Assembly: GCA_018238155.1 (NCBI GenBank) | Contig: JABCTZ010000036.1 | Location: 160,001 to 224,000 of the forward strand | Length of the DNA: 64,000 nucleotides | DNA from: Candidatus Heimdallarchaeota archaeon | GTDB taxonomy: Archaea > Asgardarchaeota > Heimdallarchaeia > JABLTI01 | Direction: 5' to 3' | In this document: piece by piece, positions 6,428-39,538 of the stretch | Layout of the letters: each line of letters begins with the position of its first letter | How positions within the stretch are numbered: the stretch's first letter is position 1 | Notes under the pieces: generated by a model | Seen by the model: only the letters and a program-made list of their open reading frames with translations | Database searches by the model: none | Told to the model about the DNA's origin: nothing | Position numbers and translations under genes: made by a program

Positions 6428-8146
6428 ATGTCAGAACAGAGATTCCCTTATTTCAAGTCGACCATGGTTAGTTTTGGGTATTTCACCAACAACCTTACGT
6501 GGTCCGCTTTTAATATCTTCGTTCCACTAATTTTAAGCGATAATTTAAAGGCTCTACTTGGTGATGTTCCTTACATCAATACACTCATTGGATTAATAAT
6601 GATTTTAGATAATATTGCCTCTATTATTATACAACCTTATATCGGAGCACTATCTGATCGTATTTGGATAGCAAAATTGGGAAGAAGAATGCCATTTGTG
6701 ATTATTGGTATTCCTCTTGCAGCATTTTTCTTTGGCCTTATTGGTACATTTCAATCAACAATGTTTGTCGTCTTAATCGGTATTTGTGGTTTTAATATTA
6801 GTATGGCATTTTACAAGTCACCAGTCATGAGTTTAGTTCCAGATTTACTCCCAAGAGAGTACAGAAGTCAAGGTGCAGGTGTACTCAATGTTGTTGGTGG
6901 AGTTGCAAGCATATCTGGACTATTGATTGTTTCAAGTTTAATAGTAAATCATAGCAAATTTGCTTTTTGGGCACTCTCAATAATAATGATTATTTGTTTA
7001 GGCATTTTATTACTGACTGTTCGTGAAAAGAAAGATATTGAAATTGAAAAAAGAGAGAAGAAAATTGGTCTTTTTTCATCTATCAAACGCATAGTGAAAG
7101 ACCGAAATTTACCACTCATATTCATGTTATGTTCAGTCTTTTTTCACACAGCAGGGTATAGTGTAGTTGAAACATTCATTAGTAGATACTCAACTGAATT
7201 ACTAGGTTTCCATCCTAGTACAGCCGGAAAAATTCTTGCTGCTTTCATTGGTTTTACTGTTATTGCTGCTTTACCTGCAGGTCTTGTAGGAAAAAGAATT
7301 GGTGCATTAAATGCAGTTGTTATTGGCATAGTCGGATTTACTGTCTCACTTATACCTTTGACTATTTTCAGTCTTCTACCTGATTTAACTATTATGAAAG
7401 ATGTATTAACACTCAATACTTTACAATCACCAATATTCACGTTGCAATTTTTACTCTACTTTCTAATAATATTCATTATGGGTTTTAGTTACTTGTTATT
7501 ATCAATTAATTCAATAGTAGTTATTTGGAATTTTGCTCCCGATAAAGAGACAGCAACATATACTAGCTTCTTCTATGTTGCTTTACATTTAGCAGCAATA
7601 CTCAGTCCATTTATCGCAGGAAGTATTTTCGATTTATATGCTTTCAATTTATTTAAGAATGGTGATGATACCTCAGGTTTAAGAATTATGTTTGTGTATG
7701 CTATTGTCTGTTTTATGTTAACGATTATCTTTATTTCTCTAGTTAAAGTATTTAGAAATAAACAATTGAGGGAAATTGGTGATAAAGAAACCTACATCAG
7801 ACATCGTTTAGAACAGAAGGAATATCCTCTAGAATACATTCCAATGCTTCTATTTGGAATAGGTACACGAAGGCGGAACGCAATCCTCGTTTTGCGAAAG
7901 GAGCATCAAGAAGAACAAAAGGATATAGATGAAAAAATACGGAAATTGCGAAAAAAGCAAATGTATGTAGTTGAAAACTTAAGTGATGATACAAGAAATA
8001 TAGAGGAATTGCAGAAGAAAACAATTATTGAACACAAACAAATGAAGAAAGAAATGACAAAAGAACAAAAGGAAAAAATCAGAGAATTGAGACAGGATAT
8101 CATTGAAAAGAAGATCAAGAAAAAATTGGAAGAAGAATACGATTAA
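6428..8146 (+). CDS. MFS transporter (GPH/SLC45-like) with C-terminal coiled-coil extension
   Basis: 'QPYIGALSDR...GRRMPF' MFS motif A, about 12 TM segments, charged C-terminal tail. Confidence 0.85.
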   Translation: MSEQRFPYFKSTMVSFGYFTNNLTWSAFNIFVPLILSDNLKALLGDVPYINTLIGLIMILDNIASIIIQPYIGALSDRIWIAKLGRRMPFVIIGIPLAAFFFGLIGTFQSTMFVVLIGICGFNISMAFYKSPVMSLVPDLLPREYRSQGAGVLNVVGGVASISGLLIVSSLIVNHSKFAFWALSIIMIICLGILLLTVREKKDIEIEKREKKIGLFSSIKRIVKDRNLPLIFMLCSVFFHTAGYSVVETFISRYSTELLGFHPSTAGKILAAFIGFTVIAALPAGLVGKRIGALNAVVIGIVGFTVSLIPLTIFSLLPDLTIMKDVLTLNTLQSPIFTLQFLLYFLIIFIMGFSYLLLSINSIVVIWNFAPDKETATYTSFFYVALHLAAILSPFIAGSIFDLYAFNLFKNGDDTSGLRIMFVYAIVCFMLTIIFISLVKVFRNKQLREIGDKETYIRHRLEQKEYPLEYIPMLLFGIGTRRRNAILVLRKEHQEEQKDIDEKIRKLRKKQMYVVENLSDDTRNIEELQKKTIIEHKQMKKEMTKEQKEKIRELRQDIIEKKIKKKLEEEYD

Positions 8147-8544
8147 ATGAACGGATTCAATCTTCATTTTAATATCTATTTTCCTTTTGGTGCTTCTTTT
8201 TTTTGCCTAAATTTATTCTATTTCAGTTGTAGTAGAAGAGAATTAGTAAAAAAATAGGTTGATCTAAAAGCATGTGTTAAGCTTGAAAATATTGTTAAAA
8301 TACAATACAAAAATCTCTCATAAAAGAGTATTTTTGTCTTTACTCTTTTTTGAGAATAAACAACTTACTAATTTATTAATCTATTAATTCATTGAAAAAA
8401 CTTTCTTTTTTCTAATAAATCAATCTCTCTTTAATTCATTTATCTATTTATTTCATAACCCTTTTTGCCACAAAAAAAAGCTATTTATATCAATTCTTAC
8501 AATAAAAGTAGATATACAATTAATATTGAAAGGAGAAAAATTAA

Positions 8545-9036
8545 ATGAAACCACTAAGCCTCTGTTTAGTACAAATGGGAGACAAGGGACTTGAATTAGT
8601 ATCATCACATCCAAAGGTTTTACCAAAAGAAGTTCTAACTGAAATCACCTATAAATCAATGCCAATGGGTGCAAAGCCTGGAGAATTTGTTTCTTCATCT
8701 GTGAGTGATCTATTCTATTCAAGCTATATTTTCTCTTTACCAAGAGAAGATTCTCGAGACAATATTTGTGCTATTATCGCTATTTTTAGTGACATGAAAT
8801 ATAACATTGATGGAATTAGAAAAGTTTTCTCGTTTTTAATTAAGGAATTAGAAACAAAGACTCTTTTAAAATTAGATCTTATGGAGGAAATCTTACCTAA
8901 TCTCTATACTGGATTCAGTAAAGGAAACATTAGAATAAAGATTAGTTCAGTTGCAACAATCTCGATTGATTTTGAAACTAAAGAAGAAGAACCCAAAGAT
9001 GAAACTACTGATCTTGAAGATGATTTATGGAAATAA
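8545..9036 (+). CDS. uDENN/longin-like domain protein
   Basis: beta-'GDKGLEL'-P-helix-'KSMP'-beta-beta-'RD' pattern; paralogous to 38759..39538. Confidence 0.55.
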   Translation: MKPLSLCLVQMGDKGLELVSSHPKVLPKEVLTEITYKSMPMGAKPGEFVSSSVSDLFYSSYIFSLPREDSRDNICAIIAIFSDMKYNIDGIRKVFSFLIKELETKTLLKLDLMEEILPNLYTGFSKGNIRIKISSVATISIDFETKEEEPKDETTDLEDDLWK

Positions 9037-9065
9037 TGAAAGACTAAGAAAAGGAGTGTAATTGA

Positions 9066-9608
9066 GTGTCATTTCTACGAAATCTCTTTAGAAGAAAAAG
9101 AACAAAAGAAGTCGATATAACGATTTGTGGTTTAGCAAGTGCTGGAAAAACTACAATTGTAAAATACCTTGAAACAGGTCAATTTATTGATACACAACCA
9201 ACCATGGGTATTAATCGTGGTGAGACAATTAGTGTTGAAAAACTTGAAATAAATATTTTTGATCTTGGAGGTCAAGATGATTTCAGAGTTCTCTGGCCTG
9301 AAGTAAATGAGAATTCAGATGGAATAGTTTTTGTTGTTGATAAGCACGATACAATACAATTCGAAGAAGCCCGTTTGACATTTCAAGAAATTGTCAAATC
9401 ACAAATACATGAAGATGTAATCGTACTTGTTTTATTACACAAAAATGATCTGCCTGGCGGAATGTCTCGAAGTAGTTTTATTCAAGAATTTGATTTAATT
9501 GATTTATCTTTCAAATGGGCTTGCTATGAAACTTCTGCAAAAACTGGTGAGAACATCTTTGAAGCATTTAGATGGTTTTTTGATCAATTGATGGAGGAAT
9601 CTTCCTAA
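9066..9608 (+). CDS. Arf-family small GTPase
   Basis: G1 GLASAGKTT, G2 PTMG, G3 DLGGQ, G4 HKND, G5 TSAK; N-terminal amphipathic helix MSFLRNLFRRK. Confidence 0.92.
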   Translation: MSFLRNLFRRKRTKEVDITICGLASAGKTTIVKYLETGQFIDTQPTMGINRGETISVEKLEINIFDLGGQDDFRVLWPEVNENSDGIVFVVDKHDTIQFEEARLTFQEIVKSQIHEDVIVLVLLHKNDLPGGMSRSSFIQEFDLIDLSFKWACYETSAKTGENIFEAFRWFFDQLMEESS

Positions 9609-10465
9609 TGGTTAATGCTCTGACATTATATTATATTATTTTTTCATGGCTAACAGTTATTGTGAATATTGTTTTGGCAAGTGCTTTGTTACGAAACTTC
9701 ATCAGAAAAAAGACTCTTGGAACGATTATTCTTTTTGTCTCATACATGCTAATTGGTTTTAGTGCAATTTTAGCTGCAATTCATTACTCAGTAGCTTCAT
9801 TCAATATTAGTATAGAATTCATTGGTGTAAGTCAAACTCTAGCAACACTTTTTCCATTAATCGCATTACTGCAAATTTATGTTTTCTCTTGTAGACATAT
9901 TCTGAAAGATAATGAAGTTCTAAAGAACTTCCATTTAATTATCTTCTCTATAATAATTGGTAGTGTATTTACGATTTATTTGATGGCTGTATTTGGAATC
10001 ACACCTCAGCAACCTGGTTTCTTGTTTGCAGAAGATGTATCTCCATTATGGTATCAGATGTCAAGAAGTGATGTTGCAAATACAAGTCTCTTTAATCTTA
10101 CAGTACGTGCAAGTGTTATGGTTATTACCACCATTCAAATTTATATCAACTTGAGAATAATTATTAGAGCATTTATACTCTCTCGAAGAACTGATAGAAT
10201 TATTCGTAAACGCGGATTACAACTAATTGCAACGGGGTTATTAGTTTACCTTACAGCTGGAATAGTCATTGCTTTAGAAATGGCAATTTCATGGCCTGAA
10301 GGTAGCGCAATGCCAACAATTTTATGGACTTTGCGAAAGGTGATATTCATAACATCCTATCTAATCCTTTACTTGGGTTGGATTATGCCTGATTGGTTCA
10401 GACGTCGGCTACGAGGGAAAACTTGGTTTGAAATGCAATATAAAACAGTATCAAAACAATCTTAG
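9608..10465 (+). CDS. Seven-transmembrane protein (HisKA_7TM-like, no output domain)
   Basis: Seven hydrophobic segments by eye; ATG overlaps the GTPase stop (TAATG). Confidence 0.7.
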   Translation: MVNALTLYYIIFSWLTVIVNIVLASALLRNFIRKKTLGTIILFVSYMLIGFSAILAAIHYSVASFNISIEFIGVSQTLATLFPLIALLQIYVFSCRHILKDNEVLKNFHLIIFSIIIGSVFTIYLMAVFGITPQQPGFLFAEDVSPLWYQMSRSDVANTSLFNLTVRASVMVITTIQIYINLRIIIRAFILSRRTDRIIRKRGLQLIATGLLVYLTAGIVIALEMAISWPEGSAMPTILWTLRKVIFITSYLILYLGWIMPDWFRRRLRGKTWFEMQYKTVSKQS

Positions 10466-11160
10466 GGGAATCATTCCTCTAACTCTACTTTTTTTGTTCT
10501 GAAAATTTTTCTACTAAAAATTAAATATCACTTTATTGATATTGATTACAGTGTCTTTAAATAGATGATTGATAAATATACTCTTGTTAGTTAGATAATT
10601 TCTAATTAACGGTGAGTGAGTTGACCTAACTCGGTTTTTAGAGTTTAAAATTCGATGTGGATTGTGAGTTGACCGACCGTCCCTTTACTAGTTCACTGTG
10701 AATTTAATAGGTGAATAAAATGAACAAACAAAAACAAGAAATTCGTAATGAATTCAGAAAAGTGCTGGCTAAACCTGGAACAGAAGTTCCTCGAATATTG
10801 AAATAACGAAATACAAAATATCGAAAGGAAAAACAAAAAATGACAAGTAAAAACCATAAATCAAACAAGAAAATAAATGAAAGCATTGTAAAAGCAAGAA
10901 ATGAGAGCCTAAATTTTAATTTACATATTGTAATAAACAAATAGACGCAAGAGATAGACACTAGTTAACAGCACTAGCTAATCATCTCCCATTTCACCTA
11001 AATATTTGCTTACAAGAAATTCCCTTAGAATTATGAACAGCTCAAACCATTACTAATCAAGCGTTGATACCTGCCTTGCATGTGTTCAACTTGATATCTT
11101 TTTTACTAATTTTACTGATAAAAATGACTTTTTAAGAAAAAAATAATGAAGGTAAAAAAA

Positions 11161-35787: not shown

Positions 35788-38115
35788 CTATAATTTTGCC
35801 GGAAGAAAAATTTGTTTAGCTAATTTCTCAAGAGCAAATTTGAATGTTTGTTTTAATTTTTGACTGCTTTGTTTATTAACTAAAGCTTGAACTATTTTAT
35901 TTTGAGAAGGCATTTCTAGTTGATGTATGAAATTGGATAGCTTATTCATCGCCCCATAAGATGGTCCTTTAAATACGTAACAAAAACGAAGCTTTTCTTT
36001 AAATTGTAATACTAAGGTATAATCTTGATGTTTGATTCGCTCAATCGATCCTTCTGTTGCAAAAGCTTCTTGCATAAAAGAGTTTATAGCTGTTAGAAAT
36101 CCTCCCACAAGCAGATCATTAAATTGTGTTTCTTGACCAAAGTTTTGTGAGAATAAAGGTATACCTTCTTCAGCTACTATCAATATTAGAACTGGTTCTT
36201 CCTCTTTGAAACTAGGAGGTTCAACTGCCCGCTTTTTTATCATCCTGAGTATAGTTTCTTCTAAACTTGTATGCGAAAGCCTTTCACCAATTGTAGGTTT
36301 TTTATCTGTGAATTCTTCCCACATCGCCTTTTCTTCGAAGTAATAATCATATTCACTTGATATTTTCATAGCTAGACGTTTCAAACCCTTCTCTTCAGCT
36401 GTAAGCTGTGCTTGATTCATTAATTGTTGTGCATTTGCAATATCAAGTTCAACTAAAGCTAATTGTGCTTGCAAGAAAAAGGTTTCAACAAGAAGTGAAA
36501 ACAATTTTTGTTCTTTAGCAATTGTTAATTGTTTTTCCATTAATTTCTTTAAATCTTGCAGAGCTTCCTCATCCCCTGTCAATTGTAGCTCAATAAGATA
36601 TAGTTCTGAGAGATTAATTAAAACAACTAGAAAAATTTCATAATTTACTACTTCCTCATCTAGAACTTGTAAGAGTAACTCCTCTGCTTTAACTCTGTTT
36701 TTTGCCCGTTTATTAGTTTTTAGAAGTAGGGCTTCGCTCACACGAGTCAATTGGTTAATTAATTTGTCTTCCTCTTGTTCATTGATTTCTTGTAACTGAG
36801 TAAATGTTTTTTCGGCTCGTTCTATCTTATCAATATCAATTAGAAGTGATATTTGAATGAAGAAAACTTCAGCTATCCGACGAGTGTTCCCCGATTCTTT
36901 GAAAATTTCCAGTCCTTTATTGAAAAATTCCAGTGCTTTTTTAGCTTCTCCTTTTTGTTGGAAAACAAGTCCACTATTGACAAATGCTAGAGCCATTGGA
37001 ATACTTCTTCCACCGATTTGTTGGTATACATCTAAACTCTCCTGGTAATAGCTCAGAGCCTCATCTAATTCTCCTTTCAATCGTAAAATTTCGCCAATAT
37101 TTCCTAGGAAAATAACCATTCCATCTATATTTTCTATCTCTCTATTCATTTGCAAACTTTTTTGATAATATTCTAAAGCTAGGTTAAGTTCTCCCTTTGA
37201 ATGCTGTACAATTCCAATACTACCAAGGTTTTTTGCTAAAATCTTCTTGTCTTGTAGTTGTTCACAAATTTTCAAACTTTGATTAAAATAGTCCAATGCA
37301 TGGTCTAACTCTCCCTTCATCGCGTGATTTATTCCAATGCTCCCAAGGCTGTTCGCTATAATATGATAATCGTTTATTTGTTTGCATATAACTAAACACT
37401 GTTGAAAATAATTTAATGCTTGATCCAAATCACCTTTATCTGTGTAGATATTTCCAATATTCATAAGATTCTGTGCGAAATGTCGTTTGTTTCCAATTTT
37501 TTCCCAAAGGTTCAAACTCTTTTTGGAAAAATTGAGTGATAGATCCAGATCACCTTTTGTGCAATGAATCATAGCAATATTTGTGAATACTTCTGCTTTA
37601 CAGTAATTGTGGTCTATTTTTTCAAAAAGTTTCAAACTTCTCTCAGTAAAATTTAACGCTTGTGAAAGATTTCCTTTATTTTGAGCTAATTCTCCTTTGA
37701 AATTCAAAACCATTGCATCATGCTGTAAAGAAATAGCAGTATTTTTTTCTTCAAGATTAAGCTTCTTTTTCTGCTGTTCAATTTGATTAATTAATAAAGT
37801 ACAAACTTCATATTCCTTCAATTTTAAGCTATTTTTTATTTTAAGTAAAATGCTACGTATAATTAACAATCTATTTTCCAAAATAAGGCTTGCTTTCAAT
37901 GATTTTTCGGCAAACAAATTACTTTTTTCATAATCTCCTTGTTCAAAAAACAAGTTGCTTTTGAGGTGATTGCAAGCTATCTGCTGTTCGACAGAGATAT
38001 CTATTTCATCTTGTAATTTAGTTAAATTCAGAAAAGCCATTTCAATTTTTCCTTCAAATAAAAGTTGTTCTGCTTCTTGAAGAATTTTGAATTGACTTCT
38101 AAACATCCACTTCAC
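35788..38115 (-). CDS. TPR-repeat protein with C-terminal longin-like domain
   Basis: Repeats 'NIG...KGELD-x-AL-x-Y-x-x-x-SL'; C-terminal 'GIPLFSQNF...LVGGFLTAINSF...SIERIKH'. Confidence 0.82.
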   Translation of the reverse strand: MKWMFRSQFKILQEAEQLLFEGKIEMAFLNLTKLQDEIDISVEQQIACNHLKSNLFFEQGDYEKSNLFAEKSLKASLILENRLLIIRSILLKIKNSLKLKEYEVCTLLINQIEQQKKKLNLEEKNTAISLQHDAMVLNFKGELAQNKGNLSQALNFTERSLKLFEKIDHNYCKAEVFTNIAMIHCTKGDLDLSLNFSKKSLNLWEKIGNKRHFAQNLMNIGNIYTDKGDLDQALNYFQQCLVICKQINDYHIIANSLGSIGINHAMKGELDHALDYFNQSLKICEQLQDKKILAKNLGSIGIVQHSKGELNLALEYYQKSLQMNREIENIDGMVIFLGNIGEILRLKGELDEALSYYQESLDVYQQIGGRSIPMALAFVNSGLVFQQKGEAKKALEFFNKGLEIFKESGNTRRIAEVFFIQISLLIDIDKIERAEKTFTQLQEINEQEEDKLINQLTRVSEALLLKTNKRAKNRVKAEELLLQVLDEEVVNYEIFLVVLINLSELYLIELQLTGDEEALQDLKKLMEKQLTIAKEQKLFSLLVETFFLQAQLALVELDIANAQQLMNQAQLTAEEKGLKRLAMKISSEYDYYFEEKAMWEEFTDKKPTIGERLSHTSLEETILRMIKKRAVEPPSFKEEEPVLILIVAEEGIPLFSQNFGQETQFNDLLVGGFLTAINSFMQEAFATEGSIERIKHQDYTLVLQFKEKLRFCYVFKGPSYGAMNKLSNFIHQLEMPSQNKIVQALVNKQSSQKLKQTFKFALEKLAKQIFLPAKL

Positions 38116-38758: not shown

Positions 38759-39538
38759 TTATTCGTTGATCTTTATTATACCTTCATTGAGAAGTCTTTG
38801 ACAAACCTCTTCAATCATTGAAGCATTAATTCTAATGCCAAGAGCCTTTTCTAAAGGCAAGGTTTTCTTACGTAAATCTTCAAAAGTGACTGGTCCTTCT
38901 GAACATATTGCCTTTATAATGGTCTTATCTAAAACAAATGAACTCTTTTCTCTTTCAAGTGCCTCTTCAACTGAGAGAACACCAATAAGTCTTTTACCTG
39001 TTAATGTCGGACTCATATTATTCCATACCTTATTTTTTGATGAGTATTCTGAATCACGAAGCAAATCGAATTCAATTTTAATACCTTTTTTAAATTCAAT
39101 TGTAAATGAGCATTCTTGAGTTATAGTCATAGATTTGAATAGATGACTTGTAATTCGTTTCAAAACCGGATATGTCATCATATTATTCTTCTTGCAGGTT
39201 TTTGCTATTTGAAGTAGAATATTCTTGTATGGAATTGGATTGGAATTTTCTTCTAATAATAATCCAAATACAACATACGTATCGCGTTCATCCATGCTTT
39301 CTTTGAATGAAGGAACTTGATTTACAATGCAAGCTGCTTGATACTTTGGTATACTAACAGAAAGAAAATCACCATCTTTACCTCTTAATGGAATACTCTT
39401 GAATGCTAATTCTTGTAGAGTGCTTGGTGAAATGTTTAGATTTGGTTGTACTGTAAGAATTTCGGGTCCTTTTTTCGTTAATGCAGCAAGATAAACTGCC
39501 TTTGCCGGTTGAATTTCCTTTGCTAAAATATCATTCAA
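38759..39538 (-). CDS. uDENN/longin-like domain fused to C-terminal winged helix
   Basis: 'KKGPEIL...FKSIP...GDF...RD' shared with 8545..9036; 'GPVTFEDL...RLLNEGII'. Confidence 0.55.
   Translation of the reverse strand: MNDILAKEIQPAKAVYLAALTKKGPEILTVQPNLNISPSTLQELAFKSIPLRGKDGDFLSVSIPKYQAACIVNQVPSFKESMDERDTYVVFGLLLEENSNPIPYKNILLQIAKTCKKNNMMTYPVLKRITSHLFKSMTITQECSFTIEFKKGIKIEFDLLRDSEYSSKNKVWNNMSPTLTGKRLIGVLSVEEALEREKSSFVLDKTIIKAICSEGPVTFEDLRKKTLPLEKALGIRINASMIEEVCQRLLNEGIIKINE

Follow-up and report, generated by a model that had tools for sequence, protein, structure and literature searches.

A conserved gene triad in Heimdallarchaeia joining a longin, an Arf-family GTPase and a seven-helix membrane protein: a candidate membrane-platform GTPase switch

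A cassette of three genes at positions 8545–10465 of the window, the 64,000-nucleotide stretch of DNA analysed here from Candidatus Heimdallarchaeota archaeon (assembly GCA_018238155.1, contig JABCTZ010000036.1, positions 160,001 to 224,000 of the forward strand), encodes a longin protein, an Arf-family GTPase and a membrane protein predicted to have seven transmembrane helices (7TM). The linkage of these genes goes far beyond chance, and they very probably form a functional three-protein unit. The mechanism that we favour is a GTPase switch assembled on a membrane platform with the longin as its GTPase-activating protein (GAP); taken as a whole, the case for this mechanism is evenly balanced. 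Each part has a known relative, namely the ArfR GTPases, the NPRL2-type longin GAPs, and the HisKA_7TM or G-protein-coupled receptor (GPCR)-like helical bundles.

Gene 1 (8545–9036, forward strand) is an open reading frame of 163 amino acids without a Pfam match; it encodes the longin, a candidate GAP for the adjoining GTPase. Gene 2 (9066–9608, forward strand) begins with GTG and encodes the Arf-family (ArfR-type) GTPase of 180 amino acids, recognized by Pfam. Gene 3 (9608–10465, forward strand) encodes the seven-helix membrane protein of 285 amino acids, identified from its open reading frame, its hydropathy and its AlphaFold2 model. Genes 1 and 2 are separated by 29 nt (9037–9065), and genes 2 and 3 overlap as TAATG, with TAA at 9606–9608 and ATG at 9608–9610. 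A Shine–Dalgarno-like motif is located 8–13 nt 5′ of each start codon (AGGAG at 8531–8535, AGGAG at 9052–9056, and GGAGG at 9593–9597). An earlier note on this DNA had described three genes, a 29-bp gap and a TAATG stop/start overlap, all of which are borne out by the open reading frames and by direct reading of the sequence.

Conservation of this neighbourhood in Asgard genomes, on which the earlier note had made its proposal depend, is found at several levels. In the genome_contigs set (one genome per species), the Arf gene lies directly upstream of the 7TM gene at 16 of 16 loci and the longin gene is seen at 15 of them; at the sixteenth, the contig ends before the longin position. The longin–GTPase–7TM order holds even at 26% 7TM identity, is also found in divergent metagenome loci, and is kept in every complete locus examined. 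Six complete triads are present in the organism's own genome (contigs C15, C20, C10, C39, C29, and C41). The distance between the GTPase and 7TM genes is −4 to +15 nt (median 4; 26 cassettes) and that between the longin and GTPase genes is 11–69 nt. No other conserved neighbours were found, as only these three genes are common to all loci examined.

The three proteins have also diverged in parallel. Their pairwise distances correlate with a Mantel r of 0.86–0.91, a value reached in 0 of 2000 permutations, which shows that the cassette was duplicated and diverged as a block, without proving contact between its members. The 7TM protein is the fastest-diverging member, with a mean identity of 0.29 compared to 0.56 and 0.50 for the other two. 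A tree of the concatenated proteins contains several old paralogue clades and two main groups, one of which has a longer 7TM tail.

By its sequence, gene 2 encodes a complete Arf-family (ArfR-type) GTPase. The Pfam Arf model (PF00025) matches it with an E-value of 6.1e-37 and a score of 127.2 bits (cut-off 22.3), above the scores of the other Ras-superfamily models, Ras (52.6 bits), Roc (41.7 bits), and SRPRB (30.8 bits), and the Arf GTPase named in the earlier note is thereby upheld. A G-alpha match of 34 bits is below its cut-off of 48.8 and spans only the Ras-like core; the G-alpha helical domain is absent from this 180-residue protein. The best sequence relatives in the PDB are Arf1 (3.8e-30), Arf6, and Arl1, with entry 8oun at 4.9e-27. 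The protein carries the motifs GLASAGKT (G1), PTMGIN (switch I), DLGGQ with Gln70 (G3), HKND (G4), and TSAK (G5). Across 23 cassette GTPases (alignment A3), these motifs and the catalytic Gln70 show either no change or conservative changes, and since they are intact a trans-acting arginine is plausible. The N-terminal sequence M-S-F-L-x-x-L-F-[KR], which has no Gly2, is conserved in the cassette GTPases and thus supports the GTG start. About 14 strong Arf-family genes are present in the organism's own genome, six of them within triads. In all, the genome has 43 Arf-profile matches at E ≤ 1e-5, and several of its Arf-family genes lie in open frames of 317–354 amino acids, which suggests fusion to another domain.

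The product of gene 1 is predicted to have a longin fold that is closest to NPRL2, the subunit that bears the arginine finger in the GATOR1 GAP. The AlphaFold2 model has a mean predicted local distance difference test score (pLDDT) of 76, with the last 19 residues below 50, and its elements follow the order β-β-α-β-β-β-α-α with a terminal hairpin. The top structural match is the N-terminal longin of NPRL2 (Foldseek E 5.6e-7, template-modelling score (TM) 0.72), for which VIA (8fw5_B) gives a Z of 15.8 and a root-mean-square deviation (rmsd) of 2.7 Å over 143 amino acids. Yeast Npr2/Npr3 and NPRL3 come next (NPRL3 Z 13.9), and the nearest named families in the Atlas are NPR2 and NPR3 (TM 0.71–0.73). 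The longins of FLCN, DENND10, SMCR8, DENND1, and the adaptin sigma and mu subunits give a Z of 9–11, and ordinary longins are well below NPRL2, with a Z of about 9. The "uDENN/longin" label of the earlier note therefore holds for longin and is imprecise for uDENN, as the uDENN domain of DENND1 is a weaker match than NPRL2. At the sequence level the family has a mean column identity of 60% (alignment A2), and comparison of its profile with PDB sequences gave chance matches only (E ≥ 0.13).

Arg71, in the β4–β5 loop of the longin model, is invariant in 28 sequences (alignment A2) and in 23 sequences (alignment A5), and by the aligned ranges (model 2–145, NPRL2 6–161) its position is compatible with that of NPRL2 Arg78. 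Arginine-finger longins are proven Arf and Rag GAPs: the Arg147 finger of SMCR8, in an Arf1 GAP, is visible in a cryo-electron microscopy complex, and a finger has been proposed for NPRL2 and FLCN (PMC8213707). A 2025 survey has found that Heimdallarchaeia have GAP-like longins with a GP motif and an arginine; the GP motif, before or at the second β strand, occurs in all eukaryotic GAP longins (PMC12290439). Because its closest structures are NPRL2 and NPRL3 and the position of its invariant arginine is compatible with that of their finger, GAP is a better guess for gene 1 than guanine nucleotide exchange factor (GEF), and the DENN-type GEF assumed earlier is less supported. Judged from the model, the longin may act as a GAP, a proposition for and against which the arguments are of about equal weight. 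The tail of the longin is acidic and predicted to be disordered, and it ends in DLW[K/R] with an invariant D-x-W (DLWK in the window protein).

Relatives of the cassette longin are found elsewhere, both in the window and beyond it. The N-terminal part of a 259-residue protein (38,759–39,538, reverse strand) matches the cassette longin profile with E 1e-11; it has a G-P motif (KKGPEIL) and an arginine in the corresponding loop (DERD), unlike the G-L of the cassette longins, and its C-terminal part is winged-helix-like. The next large gene on the same strand (35,788–38,115) encodes a tetratricopeptide repeat protein with a roadblock/longin-like C-terminus (…EEGIPLFSQNF…LLVGGFLTAINSF…). A further relative with 25% identity is encoded on contig C22 (L036 1501–1998, reverse strand), where the conserved arginine has been lost (PSN-EEAML) and the C-terminal DLW retained; its surroundings to 1.5 kb contain neither a GTPase nor a 7TM gene.

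Gene 3 is predicted to encode a seven-helix protein with its N-terminus outside and its C-terminus in the cytoplasm (N-out/C-in). Hydropathy gives seven hydrophobic segments, and the AlphaFold2 model (pLDDT 89, predicted TM score 0.81) has seven long helices, a short helix at residues 262–269 and another helix at 273–284, together with a β-hairpin in the loop between TM4 and TM5 (extracellular loop 2, ECL2). The predicted cytoplasmic segments contain 21 lysine and arginine residues compared to 2 outside, and all three N-x-S/T sequons are in predicted outside loops. SRRTDRIIRKR occupies residues 192–202 between helices 5 and 6, and FRRRLRGK follows helix 7. No output domain and no Pfam match of any kind was found in gene 3 at E-values up to 1. 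A count of seven helices, the lack of an output domain, the basic TM5–TM6 loop and the basic segment past TM7 had all been noted before from the sequence, and hydropathy, Pfam, the alignments and the model agree with each of these points.

The invariant residues of the 7TM family are concentrated at the cytoplasmic face, and conservation is lowest on the outside (alignments A1 and A4), where ECL2 is variable, rich in insertions and deletions, and a carrier of N-x-S/T sequons. The conserved cytoplasmic motifs are NFxRKKTxGT in intracellular loop 1 (ICL1), YxFxCRHILKDNE at the end of TM3 and in ICL2, RTDKxxRKRGLQ in ICL3, and YLGWIMPDWF at the end of TM7, followed by a helix-8-like RRRIRGK and by TWFE. 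Three motifs are limited to the triad-type 7TM proteins: RHxxxD in ICL2, RKRG in ICL3, and K[TS]W[FI]E after helix 8 (alignment A8). Within TM7, Arg243 is invariant and the neighbouring Lys244 is variable (RK, RS, RA, RG). A profile search of 1.84 billion representatives returned 84 relatives of the 7TM protein, none longer than 398 amino acids. None of these 84 is a fused form, and Pfam recognizes no domain in the longer ones, so they give no hint of a partner or an output. One distant relative (P0172, 398 amino acids) contains an internal repeat in which a second copy of TM5–TM7, including GWLLPDWFKR, follows the first. A long-tail subfamily (loci L014, L015, L016, L019, L020, L024, L025, L027, and L028) ends in a conserved short motif, V-E-[VI]-[ST]-[DE]-x, after a variable low-complexity linker; this motif may be a docking peptide.

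The modelled fold of the 7TM protein resembles the HisKA_7TM sensor domains, and its likeness to GPCRs is borderline. The nearest predicted structures are bacterial HisKA_7TM sensor domains (Atlas TM 0.63–0.69 by query, rmsd 3.1–4.3 over 220–244 amino acids), in a comparison that has predicted models on both sides; a language-model feature search gave the same lead. The HisKA_7TM profile (PF16927) does not match gene 3 at E ≤ 1, and its best match in the whole genome (E 0.42) is elsewhere. In a Foldseek search of the PDB, the top 50 matches are all GPCRs, with E-values of 0.004–0.03 and TM of 0.3–0.55, and VIA gives a Z of 14–16 to class A, C, D, and T receptors (rmsd 3.6–5.1 over 221–246 amino acids). 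Since a Z of about 13–14 is common for helical bundles, these scores are borderline; the same list has a designed GPCR-like fold at Z 14.6 and a microbial rhodopsin at Z 13.6. The GPCR signatures DRY, NPxxY, and CWxP are absent from gene 3, which has CRH at the end of TM3 and YLGWIMPDW in TM7, and no Pfam GPCR family matches at E ≤ 1. An identity as a microbial rhodopsin was rejected because helix 7 has no conserved retinal-binding lysine, the invariant residue there being Arg243. Among the three comparisons suggested by the earlier note, a likeness in fold to HisKA_7TM was thus obtained and that to GPCRs was borderline, but the rhodopsin lysine is missing and the sequence bears the signature of none of them.

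A wider distribution was sought among 400 genomes from the phylum. The triad-type 7TM protein was matched strongly only in the organism's own family and in a second family within its class, and weak matches to 7TM-like proteins of about 250 amino acids occur across the phylum. Of these weak-match loci, 39 were examined, 23 inside the class and 16 outside it. Outside the class, none of the 16 loci has a longin or a cassette-type GTPase beside the 7TM gene, and at one of them a Ras-type GTPase gene lies 266 nt upstream. Inside the class, 20 of the 23 distant 7TM relatives are directly preceded by a gene for a protein of about 146–164 amino acids, with no adjacent GTPase gene. The gap in these dyads is mostly −14 to +20 nt (189 nt in one case), and a 7-nt overlap with the 7TM start is frequent. 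The upstream protein begins with M-I-x-A-[VI]-Y-I-I and ends in [DE]-S-[LFI]-W; among 17 such proteins, Pfam matches were obtained to Robl_LC7 (8), Fuz_longin_1 (4), and Sybindin (3).

The triad longins and the dyad upstream proteins are thus both of the longin/roadblock type with a C-terminal tryptophan, and Trp162 is invariant across them. A profile–profile comparison between the two groups is weak (probability 31%, E 5e-4, 35 columns), and orthology is not claimed. The dyad 7TM proteins share with the triad 7TM proteins a basic ICL1, K-x-G-F in ICL3, and GYLGYIMPDWF at the end of TM7, and they do not have RHxxxD in ICL2, RKRG in ICL3, or K[TS]W[FI]E after helix 8. It looks as if a longin with a 7TM protein is the wider, core pairing, which in the triad is supplemented by an Arf GTPase of its own and by further cytoplasmic motifs on the 7TM protein. 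Because a 7TM protein and a Trp-ending longin/roadblock protein are common to triads and dyads, the longin may be placed on the 7TM platform, and because the dyads, which have no adjacent GTPase gene, lack the triad-only motifs, these motifs would be the likeliest contact of the GTPase.

Several variants of these layouts were observed. On contig C21 (L026 1486–2909, reverse strand), a cassette longin with its arginine kept and a triad-type 7TM protein are encoded at a distance of 113 nt and no GTPase gene intervenes, which makes this locus a natural form of the triad without the GTPase; its 7TM protein retains SRHILNDGD and RRKGMQ. One metagenome contig (L019 1–4930) carries two complete triads in tandem after the end of a third longin gene. 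In one subgroup of triad paralogues (L005 3107–5984, L006 5769–7175, L007 5115–8788, and L004 4895–6253), the gene after the 7TM gene is flavin-reductase-like, and one or two genes for proteins of about 470 amino acids come next; these have a weak Intu_longin_1 match and, as a lead only, language-model look-alikes in folliculin and C9orf72-like families (score ≤ 0.84). In one genus (L048 3224–5188, L049 2322–4394, and L050 3722–5683), a Trp-ending roadblock/longin-like gene is followed by two tandem 7TM genes.

In the mechanism that we propose, the conserved and strongly basic cytoplasmic face of the 7TM protein (ICL1, ICL2, ICL3, the end of TM7, and helix 8) would dock both soluble partners, and the Arf-type GTPase would cycle between its GDP-bound and GTP-bound states at this platform. 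The longin would be the negative regulator, most likely a GAP with Arg71 as its arginine finger in the manner of NPRL2, FLCN, and SMCR8, and its acidic tail, with the DLW[K/R] motif at the end, would probably hold it at the platform. The six paralogous triads would each be a separate matched set. A role of the 7TM protein as a platform or recruiter, with ligand sensing left aside, has about as much for it as against it. We infer the mutual physical binding, catalysis by Arg71, docking of the tail, and the direction of control. A prediction of the three-protein complex scored the 7TM protein as partner at 0.47, 0.48, and 0.42, and its controls at 0.00 and 0.00 when the partner was replaced and at 0.28 when the GTPase was replaced; the verdict of the tool was "no answer", and the result is not used for or against binding.

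A number of points weigh against this mechanism. Parallel divergence is expected from shared history alone, and the physical interaction of the three proteins is itself deduced. The dyads show that the pairing of a 7TM protein with a longin needs no adjacent GTPase gene. The putative equivalence of Arg71 and NPRL2 Arg78 comes from aligned ranges and not from a residue-level superposition. The GP motif is absent from the triad longins, which have G15-L16 (KGLEL) and never a proline there (alignments A2 and A5); with G-L in place of G-P, they are not the same subclass as the GAP-like longins of the 2025 survey (PMC12290439). Eukaryotic longin GAPs act as heterodimers of two longin domains (PMC8213707), whereas each cassette has a single longin gene, although a homodimer is conceivable. 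The N-terminus of the GTPase has a hydrophobic moment of 0.64 compared to 0.45 ± 0.22 for shuffled sequences, 20% of which reach 0.64. No downstream effector was identified among the loci, which have only the three genes in common.

The 7TM protein might instead sense an extracellular or membrane signal and directly catalyse nucleotide exchange on the Arf-type GTPase, in a GPCR-like manner, with the longin resetting the switch. Such a receptor-GEF would fit the N-out/C-in topology, the helix-8-like segment, and the ECL2 hairpin, as well as the GPCRs that fill the top 50 of the PDB search, the Z of 14–16 to several receptor classes, and the nearest predicted structures, which are sensor domains of bacterial signalling proteins. 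The triad-specific motifs in ICL2, in ICL3, and after helix 8 coincide with the G-protein contact regions of GPCRs, the low identity of the 7TM protein (0.29) would fit varied inputs, and no output domain is fused to it. Its fold scores, however, are in the range of helical bundles, with the microbial rhodopsin at Z 13.6 in the same list and Foldseek E-values of 0.004–0.03, and there is no Pfam match to GPCR or HisKA_7TM families. Furthermore, no conserved outside-facing pocket is evident, the invariant residues being cytoplasmic; the G-alpha helical domain is missing from the GTPase, whose match to the G-alpha model stays below the cut-off (34 vs 48.8 bits), and the dyad relatives have no adjacent GTPase gene. 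On this evidence a receptor-GEF is unlikely. A broader form would have triads gated by a ligand or by the state of the membrane, in which the 7TM protein loads its own Arf GTPase with GTP and a receptor-held NPRL2-type longin GAP resets it, giving at least six parallel channels per cell, related by descent or design to LYCHOS–GATOR1–Rag or to GPCR–G-alpha; this is somewhat harder to credit.

The direction of control could also be the opposite, with the GTP-bound GTPase, timed by the longin, gating the 7TM protein as a transporter or channel, or controlling its sorting or turnover. Close translational coupling between the GTPase and 7TM genes points to a fixed stoichiometry, an effector surface could equally be seen in the conserved cytoplasmic face, and Arg243 is a conserved basic residue within TM7. 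Since Pfam and fold searches gave no similarity to any transporter or channel family and there are few conserved polar residues in the membrane core, this role of the 7TM protein as effector or cargo is regarded as improbable. A longin of reversed polarity would be either a GEF (DENN, Mon1-Ccz1, or TRAPP-like) or a GTP-dependent effector or adaptor (as SRX is on SR-beta, or the sigma and zeta coat longins), and the cassette would then serve membrane targeting or remodelling. Most GTPase-regulating longins are parts of GEFs, DENND1, Mon1-Ccz1, AP sigma/mu, zeta-COP, and SRX are among the weaker matches of gene 1 (Z 7.5–10.8, Foldseek E 0.002–0.07), and the GP motif of GAP longins is missing. 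The Z values of NPRL2 (15.8) and NPRL3 (13.9) compared to those of DENN (≤ 10.8) and adaptins (≤ 9.4), and the invariant Arg71 in the finger-bearing loop of GAP longins, speak against it, as does the lack of coat or signal recognition particle receptor components linked to the cassette loci, and we hold it to be quite improbable. That the genes are neighbours without shared function is scarcely credible, as their order and spacing are conserved over at least five old paralogue clades in many genomes, a start and a stop overlap, and the proteins diverge in parallel.

Comparison with known systems places the favoured switch mechanism in context. The GTPases described as Asgard ArfR/AArf are, like gene 2, Heimdallarchaeial Arf-family proteins that lack Gly2 and have a putative helix segment at the N-terminus; the papers on them make no mention of operons, neighbours, transmembrane partners, GEFs, or GAPs, whereas here six of the roughly 14 strong Arf-family genes are members of fixed triads (bioRxiv 10.1101/2024.02.28.582541; PMC11914678). 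With the longin GAPs, which comprise NPRL2-NPRL3 of GATOR1 for RagA/B, FLCN-FNIP for RagC/D, and C9orf72-SMCR8 for Arf1/5/6 (PMC8213707, PMC12290439), gene 1 shares the predicted fold, the loop arginine, and a putative client of the Arf/Rag type. It differs from them as a stand-alone protein of 163 amino acids without DENN or C-terminal domains, with no second longin gene, with G-L instead of GP, and with no sequence-level homology by Pfam or PDB profile search. The lysosomal set of LYCHOS (GPR155), GATOR1, and Rag also brings together a small GTPase, a GAP that contains NPRL2, and a membrane protein whose 7TM domain is GPCR-like (PMC11525196; bioRxiv 10.1101/2024.11.21.624772). It appears to be the eukaryotic set most like the triad in its parts, but LYCHOS is a 17-helix transporter–GPCR hybrid that binds GATOR1 at high cholesterol, unlike the 285-residue 7TM protein, and is not among the top structural matches of gene 3 in Foldseek or VIA. 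The likeness is taken as one of parts and not of descent.

The HisKA_7TM domain (PF16927) is found in bacterial histidine kinases and in GGDEF, HD, and SpoIIE proteins; gene 3 appears to share its fold but has no Pfam match or fused output domain, and its partners are separate proteins. With the GPCR and heterotrimeric G protein pair, the triad shares the predicted N-out/C-in 7TM topology, the helix-8-like segment, and conserved basic ICL2 and ICL3, and G-alpha is usually placed near Arf in the Ras superfamily. The triad has no GPCR signatures, G-alpha helical domain, or beta/gamma genes, and its fold scores are borderline. A small Ras-like GTPase beside a roadblock GAP is an old prokaryotic theme, known from the MglA-MglB operons of bacteria and archaea. 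In the triad, by contrast, the GTPase is of the Arf family, the regulator is an NPRL2-like longin, and a 7TM protein is an obligatory third member. A polytopic membrane receptor specific for one Arf-like GTPase (Arfrp1/Arl3p) is found in Golgi Sys1, which has four helices and no longin partner; gene 3 is unrelated to it, and the likeness lies in a polytopic membrane partner for one Arf-type GTPase.

The surroundings of the cassette in the window, which is AT-rich (G+C of about 29–38%), are as follows. The intergenic region 5′ of gene 1 comprises 398 nt and is AT-rich; it contains a TATA-like TTTATAT (8484–8490, forward strand), a candidate archaeal promoter element 55–61 nt before the ATG of gene 1. 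A run of seven T residues (10,489–10,495, forward strand), 24 nt past the stop codon of gene 3, is a candidate archaeal oligo-T terminator that would close the unit. According to Pfam, the cassette is flanked upstream by a major facilitator superfamily transporter and downstream, on the opposite strand, by a HAAS/PadR pair, and these flanking genes are kept only among the closest relatives. The transporter (6428–8146, forward strand), directly upstream of the cassette, has a highly charged, Lys/Glu-rich C-terminal extension of about 150 amino acids.

No description of the triad, of its multiplication per genome, or of the Trp-ending dyads was found in the literature searched. A preprint of 2026 counts "7TM proteins" and clusters resembling GPCRs as Asgard–eukaryote structural families and does not link them to GTPases. 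Asgard archaea possess both Arf-family GTPases and GAP-like longins whose native partners are still to be named, and the 2025 survey asks which GTPases the GAP-like Asgard longins serve (PMC12290439). In the cultured Lokiarchaeon MK-D1, genes for longin or roadblock proteins as a rule share no operon with a GTPase gene, so that genome layout gives no means of matching regulators to GTPases (PMC10933270). The cassette is an exception to this pattern, since for each of six Arf-type GTPases in a single genome it points to one longin and one membrane protein, and thus supplies matched candidate partners for archaeal Arf GTPases. The six paralogous triads also form a built-in test of specificity between cognate and non-cognate partners. 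If the longin is a GAP, then longin-type Arf/Rag GAP chemistry would predate eukaryotes. If the 7TM protein controls the GTPase, this would be the first prokaryotic case to be described of a receptor coupled to a small GTPase, and were it a true receptor, the triad would constitute a prokaryotic receptor/small-G-protein system.

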